DNA from: an uncultured Cytophagia bacterium
GTDB taxonomy: Bacteria > Zhuqueibacterota > Zhuqueibacteria > Thermofontimicrobiales > Thermofontimicrobiaceae
Assembly: GCA_964571835.1 (NCBI GenBank)
Contig: CAZNDR010000001.1
Coordinates: 1 to 34,063 of the forward strand
DNA: 34,063 nucleotides
Direction of reading: 5' to 3'
A model generated the notes under the pieces. The model made no database searches and was not told the origin of the DNA. It worked only from the letters and a program-made list of their open reading frames with translations. Position 1 is the first letter of the stretch. Each line of letters begins with the position of its first letter. A program made the translations under genes and the position numbers. Shown piece after piece: positions 1 to 30,617 of this stretch.

Positions 1-386
1 TGGGCTACAGACAGGTGATAACTAATCCGGAAATTAATCAATATCATGAAATTAAGGAACCTGATTACAGTTCGATTCAGCGGAATGAATTAAATCCTGA
101 TAGACCGTCAAACTTTGAATTGAAACAGAATTACCCTAATCCGTTTAATTCAAGCACAATAATCAAAATTATTTTATCTCAACAGTGTGAATTAAAATTG
201 ACCGTATTTGATGTAATGGGCAGAGAAGTAAATGTTCTGGTAAATAGAATGATGGAAGCCGGGGCCTATAATATCCGTTGGGATGGAACAGGTAGAATGG
301 GAGATAAATTACCCAGTGGCATTTATTTTTATCGAATGCAGGTTGATAATATTGTGCAAAATAAAAAACTAATCTGTGTGAGGTGA
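1..386 (+). CDS. C-terminal fragment (5' end outside window) of a CRTAC1/ASPIC-UnbV-type secreted protein with a T9SS C-terminal sorting domain
   Basis: Frame 3 is open from the window edge to TGA 384-386. The translation ...ITNPEINQYHEIKEPD...FELKQNYPNPFNSSTIIK...SGIYFYRMQV is the end of an UnbV/ASPIC module plus a type-A T9SS CTD. Nt 1-55 are identical to 1827-1881 of the next gene. Confidence 0.75.
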   Translation, partial: GYRQVITNPEINQYHEIKEPDYSSIQRNELNPDRPSNFELKQNYPNPFNSSTIIKIILSQQCELKLTVFDVMGREVNVLVNRMMEAGAYNIRWDGTGRMGDKLPSGIYFYRMQVDNIVQNKKLICVR

Positions 387-403
387 TTTTCGGAGCAATT
401 ATA

Positions 404-2212
404 ATGTACAAAAATGTAACGCTACTAATGCTCGGTTTAATTTTATTCTTTATGATAATAAACACTGCTTATTCCCAAGACATCCCAGCGTTCGAAATCA
501 TCAATAACGAAAGGGTGGGACTCACGGTCGCGCCGTTTGAAAAATACGGCATGGCAGTTTCAGACATTGATCGCAATGGTTATCCGGATATTTTTTGCTT
601 GCGCTGGAAGACACCGGGGTACAGCCGAATTTATATCAATCAGAATGGCATATTTCATGACATCACGGATCAATCGCCGCTGTCACAAATTGAAGATGAG
701 GCTGTGGAAACCAATACTCGTACCACGCTATGGGTCGATTATGATAATGACGGTGATCGCGATTTAGCCATATCAACCAATAAAGATATCCACTTGCTAC
801 GTAATGATAATAATACCTTTACTGAGGTTTCAGCGCAAGCAGGATTCGTCGGACACATACCACCAGGTTTTATCGTTAATTGGGATTACTCGATTGGCGG
901 CTGGGCTGATTATGACCTTGATGGCGATCTCGATTGTATTATATCTCAAGTAAACAATCCCGATCTTTATCTATTCCGAAATGATAACGGCATTTTTACT
1001 GACGCTGCAGTTGAAGCAGGGCTGACCGGAACAATCCTGGCAGCCAGCAGCCGGCTAACCTGGATCGATATTGATCTGGATGGAGATCCAGATTTGTACG
1101 GCTCATACCAAGTGTTTCGCAATGATGATGGCGTGTTCACAGATATCACTGCAGAGTTGGGCTTGGCAGGAATAACCGATGTCGGCTGGCGAGAGTTTTT
1201 CGATTATGATAATGATGGAGATTTTGATTATTTCAAAGCAGTGAGTGATCCGGGCGCCGCAGGAACAAATGAAGTATGGGAAAATCAAAACGGCTTTTTT
1301 GTCAATGTTACCGATGAGGTTGGATTGACGCTCAGTCGCGATCGCTACCGCAGCATGACCATCGGCGATTTTGACAATGATGGCGACCAGGATATATTTC
1401 TGCAATTAAATATCGATCCCAGTTTGGATGTGCTTTTAGTGAATGACGAAGTAGCTCCGGGCGAAAGAGCATTTGCCGATGTTGCCGAATTTGTTGGTAT
1501 CACAAAGACGGGCGACCGCAAAGGATCGGTATTTTTCGACTATGACCGTGATGGTTTTCTGGACATCTATCTGCCGTCAGCCGAGCATAATCACATCCTG
1601 TATCATAATCTGGGCGGGAATAATGCTAACTGGATCGGATTAATACTTGAAGGGACAAAGTCGAATCGAGATGCTGTTGGCAGCCTGGTGACAATTTATA
1701 CCGGAGAAAAAAAGCAAATTCGCTATACCAAATGTGGCAATGGTTTTGTTAGGCAGGATAATCCCTGGGTGCATTTTGGAATTGGTTTTGCCACAGCCGT
1801 TGATTCTATTGTCATCCGCTGGCCGCTGGGCTACAGACAGGTGATAACTAATCCGGAAATTAATCAATATCATGAAATTAAAGAGCCGGATTTAAGTTCA
1901 GTCAAAGCGAATGAGAATGCATCGGCCTTTATCAACACCTGTTTGCTTTTTCAGAATTATCCCAATCCATTCAATTTGAGCACAAAAATAGCTTATGAAA
2001 TTTCTCAACCATCACATGTCACACTAGAAATTTTTGATATGACTGGCAAAAGACTAACTACTGTAGTTAATAAAATGCAGCCGGCTGGTCATTTTGAAAA
2101 TGAGTGGAATGGATTTGATCGGGAAAATAACGAACTCCCGACAGGAGTCTATTTTTATCGTATGAGAGCAAATGATTTTACTTATACAAAAAAAATGATA
2201 CTGGCAAAATAA
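404..2212 (+). CDS. FG-GAP/VCBS repeat protein with ASPIC/UnbV module (CRTAC1 family) and T9SS C-terminal sorting domain
   Basis: The ORF spans 383-2212; the likely start is ATG 404, giving signal peptide MYKNVTLLMLGLILFFMIINTAYSQ. It has repeated Ca-binding loops DYDNDGDRD, DYDLDGDLD, DIDLDGDPD, DYDNDGDFD, DFDNDGDQD and DYDRDGFLD. The UnbV/ASPIC part reads GTKSNRDAVGSLVTIY...VIRWPLGYRQ. The CTD reads FQNYPNPFNLSTKI...GVYFYRM. Confidence 0.85.
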   Translation: MYKNVTLLMLGLILFFMIINTAYSQDIPAFEIINNERVGLTVAPFEKYGMAVSDIDRNGYPDIFCLRWKTPGYSRIYINQNGIFHDITDQSPLSQIEDEAVETNTRTTLWVDYDNDGDRDLAISTNKDIHLLRNDNNTFTEVSAQAGFVGHIPPGFIVNWDYSIGGWADYDLDGDLDCIISQVNNPDLYLFRNDNGIFTDAAVEAGLTGTILAASSRLTWIDIDLDGDPDLYGSYQVFRNDDGVFTDITAELGLAGITDVGWREFFDYDNDGDFDYFKAVSDPGAAGTNEVWENQNGFFVNVTDEVGLTLSRDRYRSMTIGDFDNDGDQDIFLQLNIDPSLDVLLVNDEVAPGERAFADVAEFVGITKTGDRKGSVFFDYDRDGFLDIYLPSAEHNHILYHNLGGNNANWIGLILEGTKSNRDAVGSLVTIYTGEKKQIRYTKCGNGFVRQDNPWVHFGIGFATAVDSIVIRWPLGYRQVITNPEINQYHEIKEPDLSSVKANENASAFINTCLLFQNYPNPFNLSTKIAYEISQPSHVTLEIFDMTGKRLTTVVNKMQPAGHFENEWNGFDRENNELPTGVYFYRMRANDFTYTKKMILAK

Positions 2213-3669: not shown

Positions 3670-6600
3670 ATGAACAAAATCTATTGTACAATTGTTGGCT
3701 TGCTGTTAGTCAGTCTGATGGCCGTGCCGGTTTTGGCTCAAGAAGTTGAACCAAACGACACCATAGTCAATGCAAGTCCACTCACACTCAACGTGTTGTG
3801 TGATGCTCAATTATCAGTGGCTGATACTATTGACTTTTTCAGTGTTGACGTTGAGAATACCAATATGTACTTAATAGGTACGGTTACAAATTTCGTATTC
3901 AATGCTGAAAAAGTCCTGAATATGGATGTCGTCGGTGCCGATGGTGTGAGCGTTTTAAATTCAAGTCCCAATGGGCGCTATAAAAATTTTGGCGCCCGGC
4001 TGACCGGATGGATTCCGCCGGCAACCGGTACGTATTATGTCAAGATTTGGAGTACTGAAGCAACACTTGCTACAGTGGCAGATGCCAGTTATCAGATGCG
4101 TTTTTGGTACGGAACACCGATAGCGACCATGATGGTTCGTGAGCCCGATAATACGGCGGCAGAATCGGATGCTTTCGGAGATACTCCAACGGACGGTACA
4201 AAGATATATGGCTATATTTACAATGATTATACTGAAGCCGACACTTTCCGGACTAACTGGAATGATATCGATTTGTACCGGATAACCGTGCCCCAAGCCG
4301 GTATGAAAATTATTGCGGAGACATTCACACCCGCTCTTGAGGATCATCCGACCTGGGTTCGCGATACAGATACGAAAATATATCTGTTCGATGCAGCGGG
4401 AAATGTGACGCCGATTAATAACGATGACAAGGATCCTTGGACTGGTGATCCCTGGGATGACAAGGCGGGTTGGTTTAGTAATACGTGTTCCCGTTTTGTA
4501 TCGCCTGAAGTTCCAGCCGCGGGTACCTATTACGTCGGTGTCGCTTCAGTTTACAACTCAATAGCGGGATTAGAAACTCGGAAGCCGCACGAAAGTGATA
4601 AGAATCCTGGTGGTGGCGAGTATTATGTATCGGTGAAAGTTGTAAGTGCAAACGATCCCAGTTTAGTGGCGCAGAACTTACCTCTCAATGAAATGAAGGA
4701 CGGTTCTATTTCTGCTTCTGACACCATGGATGTCTGGTCGATTTATGCCGAATCCGATAAGATGTACTCCATAGCCACGCAAACTGATCCGGCTGTGTTC
4801 AATGCGAAGAGCGTGCTAAAAATGGACGTTGTTGACGAAAATAACGTTAGCGTTTTGAATTCCAGTCCGGCTGGTCGCTATGAAAAGTTCGGCTGCATTC
4901 TGCGCGGATGGGTGCCCGATGTGACAGGCGTCTATTATGTCAAGATTTGGGGGACCCAGGCAGCGTTGGCGGCTGAGGCAAATCCAGCCTATCAGATGCG
5001 TTTCTGGTATGGCACGCCACTTGAAGTTGCAACGACAGTACACGAACCGGACGATTCTGTTGAAGTAGCAGTGAATCTCCCGGCGATTCCCACTGATGGC
5101 ACGATTATTCGCGGCTATCTGTACAATAATTATGTTGAAGGCGATACCTTCCGAACTAACTGGAATGATTTTGATCTGTACAAGGTGGAAGTCCCTGAAG
5201 CGGGAATGATTATGACCGCAGAAACATTTACCCCCGGTCGCGAATATGGTCATCCGGAATGGATTCGCGAGACGGACACCGAGATCATTTTATTAGATGC
5301 TGCCGGTGTGGCGACACCAATTAAAAATGATGACAAGGATGTTTGGATCGGTGATCCGTGGGAGAATATTTTAGGTTTTAACAACACCTTTTCTCGATTT
5401 GTATCACCGCCGATTCCAAGTGCGGGTACTTGGTACGTTCATGTTGCTTCGTACTATAATAGTCGAATTCGCACCAGCAAACCGCATGAGAGCCATAGGA
5501 ATGCTGGTGGTGGAGAGTATTTATTATCGGTCAGGTTAGTGAAAGCCGATGATCCCAGCTTGGTAGCGCAAGTTTTGCCGCTCAATGAAATGAAGGCTGG
5601 TTCGGTTTCAGCTTCTGATACGATGGACGTATGGGCGATTTTTGCTGAAAATGACAAGATGTACACTTTAGCCACCCAAACTGATCCGGCAGTCTTCAAT
5701 GCGAAAAATGTTTTGAAGATGGACGTGGTCACAGAAAACAATGTTAGCATTTTGAACTCCAGTCCGTCTGGTCGCTATGAGAACTTTGGCTGCATTCTGC
5801 GCGGATGGGTGCCCGATGTGACAGGCGTCTATTATGTCAAGATTTGGGGGACCCAGGCAGCGTTGGCGGCTGAGGCAAATCCAGCCTATCAGATGCGTTT
5901 CTGGTATGGCACGCCACTTGAAGTTGCAGCTAAAGTCCATGAACCAGATGACTCAGCTTCAGTGGCAGTAGCTCTCCCGGCAATTCCCACTGATGGCACG
6001 GTTATTCGCGGCTATCTGTACAATAATTATGTTGAAGGCGATACCTTCCGAACCAACTGGAATGATTTTGACTTGTATAAAGTTGAAGTTCCCACCGCAG
6101 GCATGATCCTTACTGCTGAGACAGTCACGCCTGGCCGGCTCTATGATCATCCAGAGTGGATTCGCGAGACAGATACCGAGATCATCTTATTGGATGGAGC
6201 CGGCGTAGCAACTCCGATTAAAAACGATGACAAGGATGTGTGGGCCGGTGATCCCTGGGAAAATATTCTCGGATTTAACAACACCTTTTCTCGATTTGTA
6301 TCGCCGCCAATTCCAGCTGCAGGGACCTATTATATTCATGTCGGTTCGTACTACAACAGCAGAATTCGCTCCAGCAAACCACATGAAAGCCATAGAAATG
6401 CAGGTGGTGGTGAATATTTGCTTTCAGTTTCTTTGACTATGCCAAAAGAGCAAGAGCCAAATAATGATATGGCCTCTGCTAATGTCATTGATCTGCAGAC
6501 CATCACTGATGCGGCGCTAGCTGCTGATGATTCAGTCGATTACTTCAAATTCTGGGCAGATGGCGATAAGATGTACACCCTTAATACCATTGCTCCTCGT

Positions 6601-7641
6601 GGCAAGACGTTAAAGAGTGTCATCAAAATGCAAGTATTCAATGAGAGTGGTGTGAATGTGCTTAATGCTGATCCTTCAGGTCGCTACGAAATGTGGGGCG
6701 CCCGCTTAAGTGGTTGGATTCCTCCTGAATCTGGCAATTATTTTGCTAGGATTCTTGCCATCGTGACTGAAGAGACAAAGTATCAGATCAGATTATGGTA
6801 TGGCACACCATTGCAGGTGGCAAGAAAAGTTCATGAGCCAGACGATTCTGTTGCTGTTGCCTCAGCCATGGAAGCGATCGATTTGACAACAGGTCCGTTT
6901 GAAATTCACTCGTACCTGTACAATCATTTCGTAGATACGCTGGGCAAGGTTTACAACTGGAATGACTATGATCTGTACAAAGTCAAGTTAGCGGCTGGTG
7001 ATACTTTGGTGGCAGAGACATTTACTGCCGGGCCGGATAGTACCATTCGCGATCTTGATACAGAGATAATCTTGCTAACTGAAGATGGAACCGTTACGCC
7101 TATTAAAGATGATGATAAGGTCGCCTGGGCCGGAGATGATTGGGAAAATATTTTGGGATTCAATAATACTTTCTCGAGATTCATCACACCTCCAATTCCG
7201 GCGGCCGGTATTTATTACGTTCAGGTTAATTCCTATTTTAACAGCCGCAATCGCACCAGCAAGTACACAGAGAGTGACAGAAATACTGGTGGCGGTGAAT
7301 ACAGATTTAAGATGAATCTGAAAACTGGCACTGGTGTTGCTGACAATAGCAGCAATATTCCGACGAAATTCGAGTTATCTCAGAACTATCCCAATCCCTT
7401 TAATCCGACAACGACCATCAAATACTCCATTCCGAAAAACGAACTGGTGAAATTGACGATCTATAATATGTTGGGTCAGCGGGTTGCGATATTAGTCAAT
7501 GAGAAACAAGAGGCCGGTAGATATTCAGTTATATGGGATGGAATGAATTCACAGGGACAATTGATGACTTCAGGTGTTTATCTGTTCAAGCTTGAAGCTG
7601 GTTCAAATGTCCAGGTCAATAAGATGATTCTGTTGAAGTAA
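3670..7641 (+). CDS. 1323-aa secreted T9SS cargo protein: four tandem ~299-aa units, each with two pre-peptidase C-terminal (PPC)-like domains, plus a T9SS CTD
   Basis: SD GGAGGAG lies 6 nt upstream of the ATG, and the signal peptide ends VPVLAQ. PPC-like starts (EPNDT, HEPDDS, EPNND, REPDN) each precede D-x-D-x-[FYW] motifs, and the GGGEY motif recurs. The CTD (7354-7638) reads FELSQNYPNPFNPTTTIKYSIP...SGVYLFKLEAG. Confidence 0.85.
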   Translation: MNKIYCTIVGLLLVSLMAVPVLAQEVEPNDTIVNASPLTLNVLCDAQLSVADTIDFFSVDVENTNMYLIGTVTNFVFNAEKVLNMDVVGADGVSVLNSSPNGRYKNFGARLTGWIPPATGTYYVKIWSTEATLATVADASYQMRFWYGTPIATMMVREPDNTAAESDAFGDTPTDGTKIYGYIYNDYTEADTFRTNWNDIDLYRITVPQAGMKIIAETFTPALEDHPTWVRDTDTKIYLFDAAGNVTPINNDDKDPWTGDPWDDKAGWFSNTCSRFVSPEVPAAGTYYVGVASVYNSIAGLETRKPHESDKNPGGGEYYVSVKVVSANDPSLVAQNLPLNEMKDGSISASDTMDVWSIYAESDKMYSIATQTDPAVFNAKSVLKMDVVDENNVSVLNSSPAGRYEKFGCILRGWVPDVTGVYYVKIWGTQAALAAEANPAYQMRFWYGTPLEVATTVHEPDDSVEVAVNLPAIPTDGTIIRGYLYNNYVEGDTFRTNWNDFDLYKVEVPEAGMIMTAETFTPGREYGHPEWIRETDTEIILLDAAGVATPIKNDDKDVWIGDPWENILGFNNTFSRFVSPPIPSAGTWYVHVASYYNSRIRTSKPHESHRNAGGGEYLLSVRLVKADDPSLVAQVLPLNEMKAGSVSASDTMDVWAIFAENDKMYTLATQTDPAVFNAKNVLKMDVVTENNVSILNSSPSGRYENFGCILRGWVPDVTGVYYVKIWGTQAALAAEANPAYQMRFWYGTPLEVAAKVHEPDDSASVAVALPAIPTDGTVIRGYLYNNYVEGDTFRTNWNDFDLYKVEVPTAGMILTAETVTPGRLYDHPEWIRETDTEIILLDGAGVATPIKNDDKDVWAGDPWENILGFNNTFSRFVSPPIPAAGTYYIHVGSYYNSRIRSSKPHESHRNAGGGEYLLSVSLTMPKEQEPNNDMASANVIDLQTITDAALAADDSVDYFKFWADGDKMYTLNTIAPRGKTLKSVIKMQVFNESGVNVLNADPSGRYEMWGARLSGWIPPESGNYFARILAIVTEETKYQIRLWYGTPLQVARKVHEPDDSVAVASAMEAIDLTTGPFEIHSYLYNHFVDTLGKVYNWNDYDLYKVKLAAGDTLVAETFTAGPDSTIRDLDTEIILLTEDGTVTPIKDDDKVAWAGDDWENILGFNNTFSRFITPPIPAAGIYYVQVNSYFNSRNRTSKYTESDRNTGGGEYRFKMNLKTGTGVADNSSNIPTKFELSQNYPNPFNPTTTIKYSIPKNELVKLTIYNMLGQRVAILVNEKQEAGRYSVIWDGMNSQGQLMTSGVYLFKLEAGSNVQVNKMILLK
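3742..7320 (+). repeat. Four in-frame tandem coding repeats of ~897 nt (unit starts ~3742, 4648, 5545, 6442)
   Basis: Aligning the translated units by eye gives a 5545-4648 = 897 nt period. Units 1 and 4 are diverged; units 2 and 3 are near-identical. Confidence 0.9.
4648..6441 (+). repeat. Near-identical repeat units 2 and 3, including a 141-nt perfectly identical block (4891-5031 = 5788-5928)
   Basis: Direct nucleotide comparison shows the stretch ggctgcattctgcgcggatgggtgcccgatgtgacagg...cacttgaagttgca is identical in both units. Confidence 0.9.
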
Positions 7642-7788: not shown

Positions 7789-8601
7789 ATGCCTAATACA
7801 TCTTTAAGACAAGCAGTTCGTTTGCATGTGCTAATGACATTTGTAATAAATTAGCTTTTCATTACGAACGGCTTTTCTTGGTACCAAAAAAATCACCAGA
7901 ACATGACCAGAGCTGCGATTGATTTGCTTTCAGAGTCGGATAAAGTATTTCTTGGCGAAGCGACCGATTCTTTGACTGATCAATTTTGTATGTACCCGGA
8001 TTGGCACAGAAATACCCTGCGCGATGGAAGAAAAGAGGAGGCGTCAAAATTTGAGCCTTACGTCTGTTTGCCCTTGCTGCAAGATTTGGGCACGTAGCAT
8101 AAAAATGAAAAAAATGATAGTGAAATTTGTTACTACCTTGTTTCGGCTGCCATGAGCAAAGCTATTGCTCAATTTCAATCTGGCAACAAAATGGAAGCAG
8201 CAAAATACTTGGGTCCTCTGGTGCACTTTATTGAGGATAATACCTCGCCAGTTCATGTAGTTGACACTAAGCTGCTGGCATAATTGCTGCCAGTGCCAGA
8301 AAAATTAGAACCTTTTGCTCTGCATCGAGCCGTGGAGGAACCGACATTTTTAATTCCAAAGCTTGATTATCAGCCGCAACTGCTGGGCTCGACCATTGAT
8401 GAAGCAGCCACGGCTCTGTTTGTGCGCTTTAAAGAAATGAGGATGTGGGCACGGGCTACCTGCGTGCCAATACTTAGAGCCATTTATGCCGATAATAGAG
8501 CAGAAGCCGATAAAGGCAGAGCTCAGGCTGCTCTGCTCTCGGTGAAACTAATCGCTGATCTCATTCCTACAATTTGCACTTTGGCACAAAATCACCAATA
8601 G
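7789..8601 (+). pseudogene. Zinc-dependent phospholipase C / P1-nuclease-fold family gene interrupted by three in-frame stops (TAG 7852, TAG 8095, TAA 8281)
   Basis: SD AAGGTGAGG precedes ATG 7789, and one frame is kept for 270 codons. Motifs include FSWYQKNHQNMTRAAIDLL, AAKYLGPLVHFIEDNTSPVH (compare B. cereus PLC FFYLGLSLHYLGDVNQPMH) and FALHRAVEE. The ORF track shows only fragments 7903-8097 and 8284-8601. Confidence 0.65.
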
Positions 8602-8761
8602 CTAATGATATTTTTTAAACCTTAGCCATGCACTTTTCGAGCTAACTCGATTTAGCGAAGCAGAGCGGAACTCTGGTTAGTTAACTGGCTGTGAACAATA
8701 ATTTAAAATGAAAAATAAATCAACTTTGGCCGAGTAGCCGAGTTATAAAATCAAATGCTTG

Positions 8762-10351
8762 CTAATTTCTGCTGTTAATCCAGATCGGACTGGACCAGGC
8801 CAGACTTCCGTTAGTTTGCGCAACCCTGAGATAATACCAATCAGCAGTTTCACCATGTTGTTTATCTTTGAATCGAAATTGTGTTTGATAATTATTAGCG
8901 AATACCAGTCGGTGAAATAAAATTGATTCAGTGGTGAAAGCGCCCGTGAAAATGATATCACTGGATTTTTCCAGTTCGCTCAATGTTTTGCTGAATTTCA
9001 TTTTTACCGGCAATGATAGTGACAATGTTAAAGTCGAAGCCAGCTTACCCAATATTTCCAATACAATGCCATTGGTGGCACGTCCTTCGTAGGCTTGCTT
9101 GCGTGAGGTGTAAGAAAATACCTTGCAGCCTTTTTCTGTAATATCAGTTATTTTATTGCGCCGGTTTTCATCAAAAGGTCCTGATTGAAAACAAGGAGTT
9201 ACTGAAAGCAAGTTGGCGTCAGAAATTAAAATAGAAAATTGCCAATCACAGATTCTCGTTATATTCAAATCGCCCCATGGTCCCCAGCCAAATTCGATCC
9301 GACAAAGAACAGGTTTTGTCCAACTGAGGTTGTTTACCTCTTTATCGATGGGATGGACGCGATGAATGACCTGATTATTGCGCAGAATTTCTGCTCGATC
9401 TAAAACATCTTTACCTTTTACTTTAGCAAAAATATTTCGCTGCGGTGCAAAAGCAATTATTTCGCCCATGAGCTTGCCATTGATTTGAAAATCAAGCTCG
9501 ATTCGGTCGCCGCTGACACCATAAGTATGTCTGGCTTTTATTGCGTGAAAGATAGCTTCACGAGTCAGTGTGTCTGCCAATACTGCCGCTAATCCTTCGC
9601 CATAGGCGCCGGGATAACCCAAATGATCATCGGTGCTGGCAACGACACCGACCTGAGCGCCAGCTTGCCAGAGCCATTGCAGCGTATTCTGGGTGTAACG
9701 ATCACCCATGCTGTGACTGGTGTATGGAAAGGGCGAGCGGTCGGATTCGGCATTGCCATGTTCAGAAAATATTTCCACTACTGGCGAGATGTCCAATGAT
9801 CCTAGGGCAGCCCAATTTTGGCCACGCCACCCTTGTTTGTAGCCTGGATGGTGAGGAATCAGGATCGCACGGTTTGCTCGTGCAAAGTCTTGAAATTCCT
9901 GCAGCGACTGCGGGCAGACTAATGCTGCGGTAGAATCAGGAAAAACAATATGAACATCGCCCATCGATCTGGAATGAAATTCATAGCCGATAAAGGACAC
10001 AAATTTACCGGGCTGATAATAATCGTTGGCAAATTGTTTGACCTTCCCCCAATTTTGTTTGGTGACTTTAAATCCCTCAACCCATTTAAAGTGCATGTTT
10101 TGCGGCATAATGGGCATATCATGCTATTGAGAGTGAGGCGTGAAACAAAAAAAATCAAGATGACTTTGAGCAATGTCATAGGTGCGTTCAAGCGAGCCTT
10201 GAGCGTAACCAATAGCGTTGTGATTGTGCAAATCTCCCTAATAAATCTTTTTTCCAGCCACAGGCAACGGTTCATTTAGTTTGTTGCCTTTTAACCAAGA
10301 GCCAGCCAGAAGAATCACAATGATAGACATAACTTGCCCTTGTTTTTTCAT
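8762..10351 (-). pseudogene. Secreted PHP-superfamily / DUF3604-like metal-dependent hydrolase with two in-frame TAG codons (10240-10238 and 10126-10124)
   Basis: The minus-strand ATG at 10351 has a GGAG SD. The 5' part reads MKKQGQVMSIIVILLAGSWL...GKKIY*GDLHNHNAIGYAQGSLERTYDIAQSHLDFFCFTPHSQ*HDMPIMPQ... and continues in frame into the 451-aa tracked ORF (8762-10117). PHP-type His/Asp motifs are GDLHNH, GDVHIV, IPHHPG and STDDH. Confidence 0.7.
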
Positions 10352-12361: not shown

Positions 12362-13766
12362 TTAGGTGCGTAGCATTCTTTTTTGAAAAAACAAAAAATA
12401 AAATATCACGCCAACGATAAACAGCAAGCCCGTAACAAGCGTTACCTGATGAAATTTTTTGGGAATAGTGAGAAAACCAATCTCCGTTATCAGCCAAAGA
12501 ATAGCGAGAGCGAATATGGGATAGGTGAATTTGCCAAGCGTAAAACTTGTCGCTTTGAAATGTGCTTTGCGGCGGGCTGTACCGTAAGCGATAACGGTGA
12601 TAAGATAAATCAATGCCGGCAGAACGGCGGTCGCACCAACCAGCAAAGTCAAGGATTCGGCGAAACAGGTCGAAATAAAACTGAGAACAAGAATCAGCAA
12701 AGTGGCAGCAACCGGCGAATTGGTTGTTGGAGATATTTTTTTAAAAATGCGGCTAAAGAAAAAAAGTCCATCGCGAGACATGGCATAAATCAAACGACCT
12801 GCAGAGGTAATAATAATTAGACCACAGGCGAAGATTGAGATGCACACAAATACTAAAAAGAGCTTACCAATAAAAATGCCCAAGTTGGCTTCGATAATAA
12901 AGGGAAGCGGATTGCTTGACGCAAGCGCGTCATTGATATTAGGAATGGCTAAGGTGGCAGCGATCAAAAAGAATAAGCCAAAAATTCCGCTGAGGGCAAC
13001 CGAAGCAATAATGGCTCGTGGGACAGTTTTAGGAGCCTGAACAGTTTCTTCGCTCAAATTTGCCGATGTTTCAAAACCGACTAGCGTATATGAGCCCATT
13101 CGCATTGTCAGCATAAACGATATTATGTAGTCGACTCCTGGTGCGGCATGCCCTATATTCAGGAGAATAGCTGGTTCAGCACCTTTTTTAAGCGCGGCAA
13201 CTAGTAAAAAAATAGTCAAACCAATGATTCCAATTGTTTGTAAAAACTGCTGCATTATTGATGCAGGCAGCTAATTTTACGCCGATAATATTTAAGCTCA
13301 CTTGAGACACTATAGCACACAAGATAATGAGCTTGATATTAAAATCAGTGACAGGAACATTCAGCAAATCAGCTAATACTGGCGCTAGTCCCCAATCAAC
13401 GGCGGGGATGACAAGAACGAGAAAACAAAAAGAAAGCCAACCTGTTAACCAGCTTATGAACGGATTGGTTAATCTTTTGATCCACTGATAAGAATATCCG
13501 CTGACCGGAATAATCCCGGCGAGTTCGGCATATATAAGCGCTACCAATAATTGGCCAATCACCGTTATTGCCCAAGACCATAGGCCGGCCGGACCGGCTG
13601 TCTGCAACACAAATTTATAATTAGTGAAAATGCCTGTCGTGATGGAAATGAAGGAAAAAGCGACTGCAAAAGAACTAAATAACTTTAAACTCCTTTTTAA
13701 TTCCTGATGATAATGGAAAGTTTTCAGAATTTCAGTATCTTCATTGTTGGGACTGTTTTTTTTCAT
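12362..13766 (-). pseudogene. APC-family amino-acid permease split by a -1 frameshift in a homopolymer (plus-strand A5 at 13242-13246)
   Basis: The N-terminal part (13766 down to ~13250) reads ...GPAGLWSWAITVIGQLLVALIYAELAGIIPVSGYSYQW... The C-terminal part (13255-12362) continues the multi-TM permease. Adding one T to the minus-strand run GTTTTTA restores ...INNAAVFLQTIGIIGLTIFLL... Confidence 0.7.
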
Positions 13767-14039
13767 GTTCAGGCTCCGAATCGAATTTATGCAGTTTGAC
13801 ATGAACTTAAATTTCCGCTCCAAATTTTGCCTTGATGTGATTCGAAGATAGAAAGTAAATTTGTCATTGATCATACTGATAATTTTTTTAAGAATGGTCT
13901 AATCTTCCACATCCAACATTTATAATTCTCCCTTGTGCATTTTTCGTTTCAAGCTTCGCTTTGCGCCTTATGACTCATGCTTTGCGTTTCACCTTACACA
14001 GATCCTGTCTCACAAAAACTCTAACATGAGGAAACAGAT

Positions 14040-18248: not shown

Positions 18249-18346
18249 GGGAATGCAAGGGTACCTGGTGGGCCCCGCGGACTTCAAATCCGTAGTGTTG
18301 CGGCAACAGTCGTGATAGGTGGGTTCGATTCCCACACATTCCCGCC
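18249..18346 (+). tRNA. selC: tRNA-Sec-like gene, anticodon UCA (reads UGA), ~96 nt with a long variable region
   Basis: The acceptor pairs GGGAATG(C) with (A)CATTCCC, followed by discriminator G. The anticodon arm is GCGGA-CTTCAAA-TCCGT. The T arm GTGGG-TTCGATT-CCCAC is canonical. There is a 25-nt variable region (AGTGTTGCGGCAACAGTCGTGATAG), and the D arm can be drawn as GGTACC-TGGT-GGGCCC (6 bp/4-nt loop) with two mismatches. Confidence 0.75.
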
Positions 18347-18968: not shown

Positions 18969-19623
18969 AATTAAGAACCTGACCTTTGGCTGGGATAATA
19001 ATACTTTATTTGAAAATCTGTGTGGCGAGATAAAATCATCAGAGATTGTTCGATTAAGCGGCGAGAATGGCGTGGGCAAAACAACTTTGCTTCAGTTGAT
19101 TTCAGGAATGATTCCCCATTTTATACGCGGCGAAATTTTACTCGGTGAAATTGATATCGATGGTAAATCAATTATAAAATATCCACCCAAAGAATTTTTC
19201 CCTGCCATCGCTTATATTCCCAGGGCTAATATAAATTTTTTTTTGCTGACTGATTCGTTGGCTCATGAAATTTTGCTGGCAAGTTCACGCTTGTTCATTT
19301 CGCCAGCAGTGGCAGAGGAAAGGTTTAATGAGTTTTGTCAGTTTTTCCCGGAATTAGAAAGCGTAAAAGAAGCATCTTTTGCTGAATTATCTTTGAATCA
19401 AAAAATAGTGATGATCACTTTTATCTTTTTTTTACAAAATGCCAAGCTCTATCTTTTCGATGAAGCGCTGACTGGCTTTTCAGATTTAGAAATTGCCAAA
19501 TGGTATTCATTCTTTGATGTCTTGAAAGTGCAAGGCAAGTCAATAATTCTGGTCGATCACCACCAGCAATTAAAAAGTCATCTTCCATGGTTGCTAAGCA
19601 AGAAAAAAATCCTCATATCTTGA
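18961..19623 (+). CDS. ECF/ABC transporter ATPase (EcfA-like, diverged)
   Basis: It has Walker A GENGVGKT, a weak signature LSLNQK, Walker B LYLFDEA and an H-loop VDHH. Its ATG overlaps the S-component stop (ATGCTTGA). Confidence 0.75.
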   Translation: MLEIKNLTFGWDNNTLFENLCGEIKSSEIVRLSGENGVGKTTLLQLISGMIPHFIRGEILLGEIDIDGKSIIKYPPKEFFPAIAYIPRANINFFLLTDSLAHEILLASSRLFISPAVAEERFNEFCQFFPELESVKEASFAELSLNQKIVMITFIFFLQNAKLYLFDEALTGFSDLEIAKWYSFFDVLKVQGKSIILVDHHQQLKSHLPWLLSKKKILIS

Positions 19624-20240
19624 GCTGGCTTAACAGGAATTTTCCATCGGGAAAAAACTATTTAGTCGCTCAAAATGATGTAGAGCAAATCAATTTATAT
19701 CTGTATGATTTGCTAATAGCGCCCGAAAATTCAGGTCGAAAACATGTTATTTGGGGTGAGGCGGCTCATCAATTATCATTAATCGGAGATAAACTTGGTT
19801 GGGTGCCTAATCGCTTGCAGGCAGCTTTTCTAGCGGACACGGTCGAAATGGAAATTGCTGAGGCAGATGCTGCCAGGCAAAAACAGATCCAATCTGAAGA
19901 ACAAAATCTGGAAGCGAGTCGCCTTTTGCTGGTCCAATTTGATTTGCTGTATTTAGCTCAAAGAAATCCTTATTTTCTTTCCGAAGGGGAGAGCAAATTA
20001 ATATGGTTTTTGACCCAATGGGCAAAAAAACCGTCATATTTCATCATTGGCTATTTGCCTTTATCCCTTTCTAAAAAGCGGACGAATGAGGTGGTGAATT
20101 TTCTCAAACAGGCAGCAGATAATGATCACAATAAAAGTACCATCATTCTTGGTTATCTTCCTGCACAAATCGATTGGCTTAACGGATTATTGATCAATCA
20201 CAACTGGACGACTATCCGAAGTTTGTCGGCAGATGAATGA
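19587..20240 (+). CDS. Degenerate second ABC ATPase-like subunit (signature retained, Walker A/B lost)
   Basis: It retains LSEGESKLIWFLTQWAKKPSYFIIGY (an LSGGE-like signature), but has no GxxGxGK[ST] and no hhhhDE. It overlaps the upstream ATPase gene by 37 nt in another frame. Its position matches the second half of fused YkoD-type ATPases. Confidence 0.5.
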   Translation: MVAKQEKNPHILSWLNRNFPSGKNYLVAQNDVEQINLYLYDLLIAPENSGRKHVIWGEAAHQLSLIGDKLGWVPNRLQAAFLADTVEMEIAEADAARQKQIQSEEQNLEASRLLLVQFDLLYLAQRNPYFLSEGESKLIWFLTQWAKKPSYFIIGYLPLSLSKKRTNEVVNFLKQAADNDHNKSTIILGYLPAQIDWLNGLLINHNWTTIRSLSADE

Positions 20241-22422: not shown

Positions 22423-24036
22423 TTGAAATTAAACCATCAGACAAAGTTCATCTTTATAACGGGAGGCGTTGTTTCGTCACTGGGCAAAGGAATTGCCTCG
22501 GCTTCCATTGGCATGCTGTTGCAAGCACGTGGTTTGAAAGTGTCGCTTTTAAAAATGGATCCTTATATAAATGTCGATCCGGGCACGCTGAGCCCCTACC
22601 AGCATGGCGAAGTATTTGTAACTGATGATGGCGCTGAAACAGATCTCGATTTAGGACACTATGAACGATTTTTGGATATTAATTTATCAAAGAAAAATAA
22701 CACAACGACTGGGCAAATATATTACACTGTTATTAATAGGGAGAGAAATGGCGATTATTTGGGAAAGACGGTGCAAGTCATTCCGCATATTACCGATGAG
22801 ATAAAACGGCGCATTATGGATGTCGCTGATAACATTGATATCGTGATCACAGAAGTTGGCGGCACCGTCGGTGATATAGAAAGCCTGCCTTATCTTGAAG
22901 CGATACGTCAATTCCGGTTGGATGTCGGTTCCCAAAATCAACTCAACATTCATTTGACATTGATCCCCTTCATTAAAACTGCTGGCGAGTACAAGACCAA
23001 GCCCACACAACATTCGGTCATGCGCTTGCGCGAAATTGGTATCCAACCTGATATACTATTGTGTCGCACCGAAATTCCACTCGATCTTGATTTAAGAAAA
23101 AAAATCGGTCTTTTTTGCAGCGTGCCTGTAGATTCTGTCATTAGCGCTGATGATGTTCAAACCATCTATGAAGTGCCGCTCATGTTTCGAGATGGTGGAT
23201 TAGATGAAATTATCATCAATAAATTTAATTTGAAGACCAGCAAGCCAAATTTTTCTGGCTGGGAAAAATTTGTATCAAAGGTAAAGAGTCCATCGACAGA
23301 AGTGAAAATTGTGGTTTGTGGCAAATATGTTGAATTAAAAGATTCGTACAAAAGTATTGCCGAATCATTTGTTCATGCCGGCGTTGCCAATGAGGCGCAA
23401 GTAAAACTGGAGTGGGTAGAAGCTGAAGAAATTGAAAAAAAAGGCGCTGAAAAATACCTATCAGGGATGAATGGTTTATTGGTGCCAGGTGGTTTTGGCA
23501 ACCGGGGAAGTGAAGGAAAGGTGAAAGCGATTCAGTATGCCAGGGAGAATAAAATTCCCTTCTTTGGCATTTGTCTTGGGCTGCAATGTGCCGTCATTGA
23601 ATTTGCCCGCCATGTCTGCGGCTTGGATAATGCCAATAGCACTGAGTTCAATGAAAATACACCACATCCGGTTATTGACTTGATGGAGGAACAAAAACGG
23701 ATAAAATCAAAAGGTGGCACCATGCGGCTTGGATCTCAGCCGTGCAAAATCAAAAAAGATAGCCTGGCATTTGAAATTTATAAAATGGACTTGGTCAATG
23801 AACGACATCGGCATCGGTTAGAAGTGAACGAGCGCTATTATGAAATTTTGGAGAAGCATGGCTTGGTTTTCAGTGGCATCAATCCACAGCTTGATTTGGT
23901 GGAAATTATCGAACTACCAAATCATCCGTGGTTCGTCGGGGTGCAGTTTCACCCAGAATTGAAGTCGCGTCCTCTTAAGCCTCAGCCGTTGTTTAGAGAA
24001 TTTGTTCGTGCTGCTATAAAATATGGGAAGAAGTGA
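22423..24036 (+). CDS. pyrG: CTP synthase
   Basis: The TTG-start N-terminus reads [23 protein letters not shown]. The glutaminase domain has [12 protein letters not shown]...[10 protein letters not shown]...VGVQFHPE. The protein is 537 aa. Confidence 0.95.
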
Positions 24037-25484: not shown

Positions 25485-26363
25485 GTGAAGGGCAAAAGTG
25501 AGATGTGGGTAGCCGGAATTTTCCTGGTTTTGATAGCTTGTCCAAAGTTATTGGCTCAACAACAGGAGAAAATGACTTTAGCTGTTTTGGATTTTAAAAA
25601 TAATTGTTCCACGTCGAGATACGATCGCTTGCAACGGGCAATTCCAGAAATGCTCAAGACCGAATTATCTGCCTGTCATGAAATTTCTGTAGTCGAACGA
25701 AACAAAATCGAGAGCATTTTATCGGAGCAAGCTTTGGCGCAGGCTGGTTTTGTCAATGGCGAACAAGCTCAACAAGTCGGACGTTTGGCTGGAGCAGAAT
25801 ACTTAATCACCGGCGAAATCAATACCGTCAATGGACAACTTAGAGTTGATGCCCATTTGATCAAAGTCGCTAGCGGACAGATAATTGGCGAAAAAGTAAC
25901 CGGTAGAAATGACAAACAGATCGATGCCATGATAAGATTATTGGCCAATAATTTTATTCACGAGCTTAGCGGTACTGGAATACGAAAAGAAACGGTTAAA
26001 CTAAAAAATTATCAATCGACCTTGGCGCTGATTACAACTGGCTCTCTGGCTGCATTGACGACTGGTTTTCATATTGCTTATCGATATAACTATGATAAAT
26101 ATCATAAAACGACAGCGCTGAATAAATTTAATTCTTATTATGACCGGGCGAATAAGAATTACCAGGCACGAAACGTGTTTTTTGTTGTTACTGGTTTTTC
26201 AGCCTTGGCAACTTTTTTTCTTTGGCAAAAGGATAATGGCAAAGGCAATAAAATTTATGCCACGCAAGATCAATCTGACCGGCCATTCCTGCTAACTAAC
26301 TTAGCACTGGCCGTATCGACCTGCGGTGACGGCTGTACCGTTTCACTAAACTTTTGCTTTTAA
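25485..26363 (+). CDS. Envelope lipoprotein with a CsgG/LpoB-like N-terminal domain
   Basis: It has a lipobox-like VLIAC. The CsgG-like pattern reads LAVLDFKNN...IPEMLKTELS..HEISVVERNKIESILSEQALAQAGFV...GRLAGAEYLITGEI...LRVDAHLIKVASGQIIGE. The C-terminal half is hydrophobic and ends in Phe. Confidence 0.5.
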   Translation: MKGKSEMWVAGIFLVLIACPKLLAQQQEKMTLAVLDFKNNCSTSRYDRLQRAIPEMLKTELSACHEISVVERNKIESILSEQALAQAGFVNGEQAQQVGRLAGAEYLITGEINTVNGQLRVDAHLIKVASGQIIGEKVTGRNDKQIDAMIRLLANNFIHELSGTGIRKETVKLKNYQSTLALITTGSLAALTTGFHIAYRYNYDKYHKTTALNKFNSYYDRANKNYQARNVFFVVTGFSALATFFLWQKDNGKGNKIYATQDQSDRPFLLTNLALAVSTCGDGCTVSLNFCF

Positions 26364-29978: not shown

Positions 29979-30365
29979 ATGAGTCGATTCAGTAAATTAA
30001 GTCATACGATCTATGAAGGTAAGTATCGTATTGTATTCTGTCCGAAATCTCGTTATCGAATACTACAAGGTGATATGGCAGAATACTGTAAAACTTAAAT
30101 CTATTTTTTATGTCGCCAGAAAGACAAGATCGAAATACTCGAACTGAACATTCAGGTCGATCATATTCATATAGCGGTATCAATAGTATCGAAATACTCA
30201 GTTTCATCATTCACGGGTTTTCTCAAAGGAAGGTTGGCGTTGAAATTGTTTGAGCATTATGAGAAACTAAGCAAGCGCTATTGGGGTCGTCATTTATGCT
30301 TTCGTGGATACGGTGTCAGTACTATTGGTTTGAATGAGGAACAGATCCGCAAATATGTTAAATAG
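29979..30365 (+). pseudogene. tnpA: IS200/IS605-family Y1 transposase TnpA with one in-frame TAA (30096-30098)
   Basis: My own translation reads MSRFSKLSHTIYEGKYRIVFCPKSRYRILQGDMAEYCKT*IYFLCRQKDKIEILELNIQVDHIHIAVSIVSKYSVSSFTGFLKGRLALKLFEHYEKLSKRYWGRHLCFRGYGVSTIGLNEEQIRKYVK. It contains the HUH motif (DHIHI), the catalytic-Tyr region (GY.VST.G) and the RYWGRHL signature. Confidence 0.8.
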
Positions 30366-30617
30366 CAAGAGAAAACCGATAAAATGATGAACAAGCACGA
30401 CAAAATATAAAATAACCGCCAAACCCAACAGCGCACCTTTCAGGGCTAATATATCAAGCCACTGCCTCTGGCGCTGGTAAGTTGACTATGCTAATGGAGC
30501 AAAGTAACAAATCGGTGAGCTTTTAGTAGTTGACTATTTATTAATCAAAAATGCAAGGCATGAATTACGTTCACTTGGATGGCAGCGATCCCGACATTGT
30601 AAATCAACGCGATAAAA

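Follow-up and report, generated by a model that had tools for sequence, protein, structure and literature searches.

Do in-frame stop codons in genes whose homologs run on without interruption mark genes that have died, or genes whose stop codons are read in another way? This question is raised by a stretch of 34,063 nucleotides from an uncultured Cytophagia bacterium (GTDB lineage Bacteria; Zhuqueibacterota; Zhuqueibacteria; Thermofontimicrobiales; Thermofontimicrobiaceae; GenBank assembly GCA_964571835.1, contig CAZNDR010000001.1, positions 1 to 34,063, forward strand), which we call the window. Within it, a phospholipase-C-like gene (gene A), a convergent DUF3604 gene (gene B) and an IS200 transposase gene (tnpA) are interrupted by TAG and TAA codons, and a permease gene 2 kb from gene B is the fourth disrupted gene. 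Our analysis suggests that these are very probably ordinary pseudogenes that are fixed in the species, namely a decaying accessory locus and a dead IS200 copy, in which TAG and TAA would be read as stops without any recoding, suppression, RNA editing or targeted deamination. The four genes are as follows.

7789..8601, plus strand: gene A, 270 codons, pseudogene of a secreted, uncharacterised family with a zinc-dependent phospholipase-C-like fold
8762..10351, minus strand: gene B, DUF3604 (PF12228, Pfam match) pseudogene of 529 codons, convergent with gene A
12362..13874, minus strand: pseudogene of an APC-family amino-acid permease, in two overlapping open reading frames (ORFs), with a frameshift in the T5 run at 13242-13246
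29979..30410, plus strand: pseudogene of an IS200/IS605-family tnpA (Y1 transposase; Pfam Y1_Tnp)

Premature stop codons in three genes

The three stop-bearing genes hold seven in-frame stops, five TAG and two TAA, and in-frame TGA was absent from gene A, gene B and tnpA.

7852..7854, plus strand: TAG in gene A, in the signal-peptide region; the ancestral codon was probably TTG (Leu)
8095..8097, plus strand: TAG in gene A, at a conserved Trp (TGG to TAG)
8281..8283, plus strand: TAA in gene A, at a Gln/Glu position (CAA to TAA)
10238..10240, minus strand: TAG in gene B, at Trp38 in the YWGDLHNHN motif, from TGG
10124..10126, minus strand: TAG in gene B, at the invariant Trp76 in HSQWHD, from TGG
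30096..30098, plus strand: TAA in tnpA, from CAA at Gln40
30363..30365, plus strand: TAG in tnpA, from TGG at Trp129 in YVKWQEK

A reading of this DNA from its sequence only had described three stops in the phospholipase-C-like gene (TAG, TAG, TAA), two TAGs in gene B (there called PHP-like) and no UGA among the lesions, and all of this was confirmed. It had given tnpA a single stop; the TAA at 30096 is there, but the TAG at 30363 had been overlooked, which brings the total to seven instead of six.

The homologs have sense codons at these places. Gene B has more than 1000 homologs, the best of which shows 71% identity, and among the 23 that were aligned (alignment A1), Trp76 is W in every one and Trp38 is W in at least 90%. 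The 17 homologs aligned with gene A (alignment A2; 41-73% identity) are full length in a single frame. The TAG at 8095 stands where 16 of them have Trp ('xWHKN') and the TAA at 8281 where they have Gln or Glu, while the TAG at 7852 falls in a variable column of the signal peptide. In the DNA of the nearest gene A homolog, P0121, the three sites read TTG, TGG and CAA. For tnpA (alignment A3, 19 homologs), the site of the TAA is Q in close relatives and that of the TAG is a nearly invariant W, and similarity to other TnpA proteins carries on past this TAG. An intact relative, L170, with 86% protein identity, has CAA and TGG at the two sites. The tabulation of homologous residues that had been proposed as a check gave W and W for gene B, a probable L followed by W and Q for gene A, and Q and W for tnpA.

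All seven stops are unchanged in contigs of other assemblies, from up to three other samples. Contigs L001 and L002 of JGI 3300022556 and contigs L086 and L168 of ENA ERZ27245470 cover the A/B and IS200 regions and carry the same stops as the window, and both tnpA stops are present in contig L167 of JGI 3300010302, which covers the IS200 region only. These contigs differ from the window at 0.04-0.8% of positions by single nucleotide polymorphisms (SNPs), for example by 23 SNPs in 8,753 bp in the case of L086. Several of them carry genuine strain SNPs, and they are therefore independent populations and assemblies. The premature stops are real and fixed at the species level. They are common only to strains that are at least 99.2% identical, and diverged orthologs do not share them: the closest relatives, at 71%, 73% and 86% identity, have undamaged genes that carry W, Q or L there.

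Further damage in the affected genes

Besides its two nonsense codons, tnpA has one frameshift and has lost six invariant residues.

30382..30383 (approximate), plus strand: 1-bp deletion in tnpA, from the DNA alignment with L170 (alignment A5)

Where the relative reads GATAAGAAC, the window reads GATAA-AAT, and the C-terminal tail is frameshifted; the original frame still gives "...QNIK*", as in the relative. The lost residues, which are invariant in 19 relatives, are C14G, H17R, Y24S, W107C, S108F and C112G. With departures at 6 of the 42 invariant columns, this tnpA is the worst of the 20 sequences compared (rank 1). Contigs L167 and L168 both end about 120 bp beyond the IS200 gene (30527-30533), which hints that the right end of the element is repeated or variable in the community. 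In other samples, the intact relative with 86% identity sits in different genomic surroundings (L170-L172).

The permease is split into an ORF at 13874-13188, which matches positions 1-150 of Pfam AA_permease_2, and an ORF in a different frame at 13255-12362, which matches positions 147-417. Contigs L001 and L086, from two other assemblies, show the gene divided in the same way. In gene B, 16 of 236 conserved columns depart from the family (6.8%, where homologs average 2.9%; rank 3 of 24), and three of the replacements, I211T, R212S and G217D, fall within the invariant YIRHSMGGR motif. In gene A the departures number 6 of 66 conserved columns (9.1%, where homologs average 4.3%; rank 3 of 18), a modest signal of relaxed constraint. 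Over the three stop-bearing genes, departures at conserved columns are 2-5 times the homolog mean. Together with the frameshifts, these conserved-site replacements point to relaxed constraint. The sequence-only reading had stated that there were no frameshifts, which the deletion in tnpA and the T-run frameshift at 13242-13246 in the permease contradict. Its statement that the catalytic motifs remain intact holds only in part, considering the six invariant residues lost in tnpA and the threefold change of YIRHSMGGR in gene B.

Gene A matched no family in Pfam, and the family profiles of gene A and gene B found no matches among PDB sequences. A structure model of the gene A family (pLDDT 81) was compared by fold search and matched the zinc-dependent phospholipases C, namely the alpha-toxin of C. 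perfringens, the PLC of B. cereus and PlcB of Listeria, at a TM score of about 0.5. On this modelled fold the label "PLC-like", which had been given from the sequence, appears reasonable. On the contig of the nearest relative, the gene after DUF3604 is convergent with it, encodes 253 residues and has no Pfam match. This suggests that A and B are a conserved pair and that both were lost here jointly with the neighbouring permease. A heparinase II/III-like gene that lies between the damaged genes of the locus still has an open frame.

Mutational origin of the stops

Each stop can be derived from its ancestral codon by a single-base change: four are TGG to TAG, two are CAA to TAA, and one is a probable transversion from TTG to TAG. 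Six of the seven have a firm ancestral codon, and six of the seven are G:C-to-A:T transitions. For comparison, all single-base routes to stops were enumerated from the codon content of the three genes under four mutation models. Nonsense changes made up 4-5% of substitutions (about 4.7%), or about one per 14-17 missense changes. TGA should account for about 25% of new stops, and finding none in seven has a probability of 0.12-0.16. Six or more of seven stops by G:C-to-A:T transition have a probability of about 0.05-0.2 under realistic spectra, and the share of Trp among the transition-derived TAG and TAA stops (4 of 6) one of about 0.09, considering the 22 Trp and 47 CAA/CAG codons of the genes. 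Neither the missing TGA nor the surplus of transitions is significant. A recent inactivation by a transition-biased process, as cytosine deamination would produce, had been proposed for these genes; the single-base changes, mostly G:C-to-A:T at Trp and Gln codons, were confirmed, but a special deamination process is neither needed nor supported.

The proportion of frameshifts was calibrated on the comparison of tnpA with L170, in which 72 substitutions and 2 indels give about one indel per 36 substitutions. The strain comparisons, with 89 SNPs and 2 indels, gave a similar ratio. With indels this rare, about one frameshift would be expected for every two nonsense codons, and the seven nonsense codons and two frameshifts of the four damaged genes fit what the calibration predicts.

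It had also been remarked that four of the six stops then listed are followed by C. A recount gave three of those six, or four of all seven. In these four cases a conserved codon follows (W-H, W-H, W-Q and L-L) and supplies the C as its first base; a leaky-stop context was rejected, since the C is inherited from a conserved His, Gln or Leu codon.

These data are consistent with the following course of events. A non-essential accessory locus, formed by the convergent pair A and B and the nearby permease, would be decaying, and a separate IS200 copy would be dead. Spontaneous single-base substitutions would have made the stops by the commonest routes. Each gene, once inactivated by a first hit, would then have gathered more stops, missense changes and an occasional indel in the absence of selection. 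The lack of functional protein products and the order of events are inferences.

Unitary pseudogenes in decaying accessory loci and dead insertion sequence (IS) copies are known from bacteria such as Salmonella Typhi, Shigella and Mycobacterium leprae. As in those systems, the stops and frameshifts here stand at sense codons of intact homologs, replacement at conserved sites is raised, and several damaged genes are clustered in one locus and fixed in the population. No essential difference sets the present genes apart: their ratio of nonsense codons to frameshifts, 7:2, is above that of some surveyed genomes, and it matches the indel ratio of about 1:36. In the lacI work of Coulondre and Miller, amber and ochre mutations reportedly came mostly from G:C-to-A:T transitions in codons for Trp and Gln. 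The same changes, TGG to TAG and CAA to TAA, dominate here; unlike in lacI, evidence of 5-methylcytosine hotspots or of a specific sequence motif was not found in these genes.

Alternative explanations

Several observations weigh against ordinary decay and should be set out together. The three genes have seven stops where about 2.7 are expected from the missense load (about 2.6 times as many), and in gene A alone there are three where about 0.6 are expected (P about 0.02). Four of the five in-frame TAGs align with a nearly invariant Trp. None of the 26 intact genes of the window ends in TAG, against about 20% in distant relatives. Gene B has no SNP in its 1590 bp between strains that differ by 0.26% overall, which is unlike a freely drifting pseudogene, but the strain SNPs cluster in tracts. 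A suppressor that reads TAG as Trp would also predict both the TAGs at Trp sites and the TAG-free terminators. The surplus of stops carries little weight, as the genes were picked for having stops, which inflates the figure.

A surplus of stops could also be due to a context-specific burst of cytosine deamination that turns CpA/TpG into TpA and so creates TAG and TAA and never TGA, for example by an interbacterial deaminase toxin, by loss of uracil repair or by a process like repeat-induced point mutation (RIP). The six transitions are all CA-to-TA or TG-to-TA, and the number of stops is somewhat above the prediction from missense load, both as such a burst would have it. However, the codons TGG and CAA bring the CpA context with them, and one stop is probably a transversion. 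A directional surplus of G:C-to-A:T changes over the affected sequence was not found in the comparisons of IS200 or gene A: there are 27 such changes against 28 in the reverse direction between tnpA and L170, and 76 against 84 between gene A and P0121. In GC content and in GC content at third codon positions (GC3), genes A and B do not differ from neighbouring genes, and most missense changes at conserved sites belong to other classes (for example I to T, V to A, E to G and C to G). Fungal RIP and the hypermutation of retroviruses by APOBEC3G likewise produce stops through CpA-to-TpA and TGG-to-TAG changes, but the present genes show no overall G:C-to-A:T surplus or drop in GC, and they are non-repeat genes apart from the single IS copy. 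Given the symmetric differences and the normal GC3, hypermutation by a deaminase or a RIP-like process was rejected, and we regard a deamination burst as very unlikely.

The second alternative concerns how TAG is read. The 26 intact genes end in TGA (13 genes) or TAA (13 genes), and among all 29 genes of the window only the damaged genes A and B have a TAG terminator, at 8599 and at 8764-8762, respectively. In loci of similar GC content from distant relatives, 51 of 257 stops (about 20%) are TAG, with a range between loci from 0 of 12 to 5 of 12. A recent foreign origin of A and B was considered as the source of their TAG terminators and rejected, since the GC content, GC3 and codon fit of both genes are typical of the contig. 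Under amber suppression or an incipient reassignment of TAG to Trp, brought about by a tRNA-Trp with a CUA anticodon or by a weak or absent release factor 1 (RF1), gene B, which has TAG lesions only, would stay functional, and functional genes would have lost TAG as their terminator. The Trp-sited TAGs and the TAG-free terminators of the intact genes agree with this, as does gene B, in which TAA, TGA and frameshift lesions and SNPs between strains are all absent. If it were true, it would be the first natural decoding of UAG as Trp in bacteria.

Against amber suppression, TGG to TAG is the commonest mutational route to a stop, so that the enrichment at Trp does not discriminate. Two of the three genes also have a TAA at Gln, and the IS200 gene is frameshifted as well; both would be dead regardless. 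The 26 intact genes hold no in-frame stops of any kind, TAG included. The terminal TAGs of A and B fall at the C-termini of most homologs (alignments A1 and A2), the usual ends of these proteins, and TAG therefore appears to act as a terminator there. Gene B has the three replacements in its invariant motif. A suppressor tRNA was not found within the window by ARAGORN or Rfam, the only tRNA being the following one.

18249-18343, plus strand: tRNA-Sec, anticodon UCA (ARAGORN; Rfam RF01852, 64.6 bits)

A natural bacterial code with UAG as Trp was not found by literature search. A deep-branching and poorly sampled lineage with a weak or absent RF1 and an amber-suppressing tRNA-Trp, in which gene B is still expressed, is accordingly a long shot, and amber suppression or incipient reassignment as such appears highly improbable to us. 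Suppression or readthrough had been one of the three options raised earlier; it finds no support in view of the sole tRNA-Sec in the window, the TAA stops beside the TAG stops, the intact relatives and the further damage in the genes. Decoding of TAG as pyrrolysine finds no pyl genes or tRNA-Pyl in the window; the TAG-bearing genes are the PLC-like gene, the DUF3604 gene and the IS200 tnpA and not methylamine methyltransferases, and the ancestral residue is Trp or Leu.

Global or partial recoding was rejected on three grounds: in-frame stops are absent from the intact genes, TAA often serves as a terminator, and the ancestral residues are not of one kind. The sequence-only reading had likewise called a global reassignment unlikely, on the ground that TAA and TAG end many genes here. 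The argument is sound for TAA, which ends 13 intact genes, and it rested on a wrong statement for TAG, which ends only A and B. Known stop reassignments are those of UGA to Trp or Gly (codes 4 and 25) and of UAG to Gln in recoded phages (code 15). The window resembles them in having in-frame stops at conserved sense positions and intact genes without a TAG terminator. It differs in that the stops are confined to three otherwise damaged genes and involve two stop codons and three ancestral residues, in that TAA is a frequent terminator, and in that a cognate tRNA was not seen in the window.

Repair of the messages by A-to-I or U-to-C RNA editing was set aside as improbable, as two types of editing would be required and neither is known to occur in these contexts in bacteria. 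The weakest alternative, and an extremely improbable one, is that the stops are assembly, consensus or sequencing artefacts of the metagenome bin, as had also been proposed: the contig does come from a metagenome-assembled genome (MAG) and the permease frameshift sits in a homopolymer, but the seven stops and the permease split are identical in the contigs of JGI 3300022556 and ENA ERZ27245470, the IS200 stops were found again in JGI 3300010302, and these three assemblies, from strain-level variants with their own SNPs, exclude it.

Genomic context

The window is one complete contig of the MAG. The lineage is distant from sequenced relatives, as the best match of its GlpK among GTDB species representatives is 55% identical and that of its PyrG in a metagenome collection is 65% identical. 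Sorting domains of the type IX secretion system (T9SS), lipopolysaccharide-transport genes and the tRNA-Sec point to a putative Gram-negative bacterium with type IX secretion. The tRNA-Sec gene is flanked by a PAS/SpoIIE phosphatase gene and by an operon for an energy-coupling factor (ECF)-type transporter; selA, selB, selD or an obvious selenoprotein gene was not found in the window.

The strain SNPs are unevenly distributed. Ten lie in 135 bp (25751-25886) of a CsgG/LpoB-like lipoprotein gene and are common to three assemblies, and contig L169 has 22 in 510 bp (22803-23312) of pyrG. Such clusters look like recombination tracts and not like evenly spread divergence.

Among the other genes of the window, the following were noted.

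15-386 and 383-2212, plus strand: tandem paralogs, the first of which is cut by the contig start; the C-terminus of the FG-GAP/ASPIC protein at 383-2212, T9SS tail included, is repeated in the gene at 15-386
3670-7641, plus strand: secreted protein of 1323 residues with four internal repeats of about 290 residues each and a T9SS C-terminal sorting domain
19587-20240, plus strand: ORF after the ABC ATPase of the ECF-type transporter, with no Pfam match and with degenerate ABC-like motifs (LSEGE)

With these motifs, the ORF at 19587-20240 is perhaps not a pseudogene but a second ATPase subunit in degenerate form.

Significance of the finding

The loss of accessory genes and IS copies by ordinary mutation is a phenomenon already known. 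The present case indicates that a cluster of genes which looks nonsense-only in a MAG contig can consist of fixed, real pseudogenes, and that an enrichment of Trp-to-TAG and Gln-to-TAA changes without TGA is the default mutational outcome and not a signal of recoding. As it stands the case is of little consequence; the only point that could matter is that the 26 intact genes of the window, a small sample, lack TAG terminators in a lineage without close sequenced relatives. The locus is a useful negative control for alternative-code screens that are based on in-frame stops, and such screens should check for frameshifts, for the missense load at invariant sites and for the presence of the codon in intact genes.

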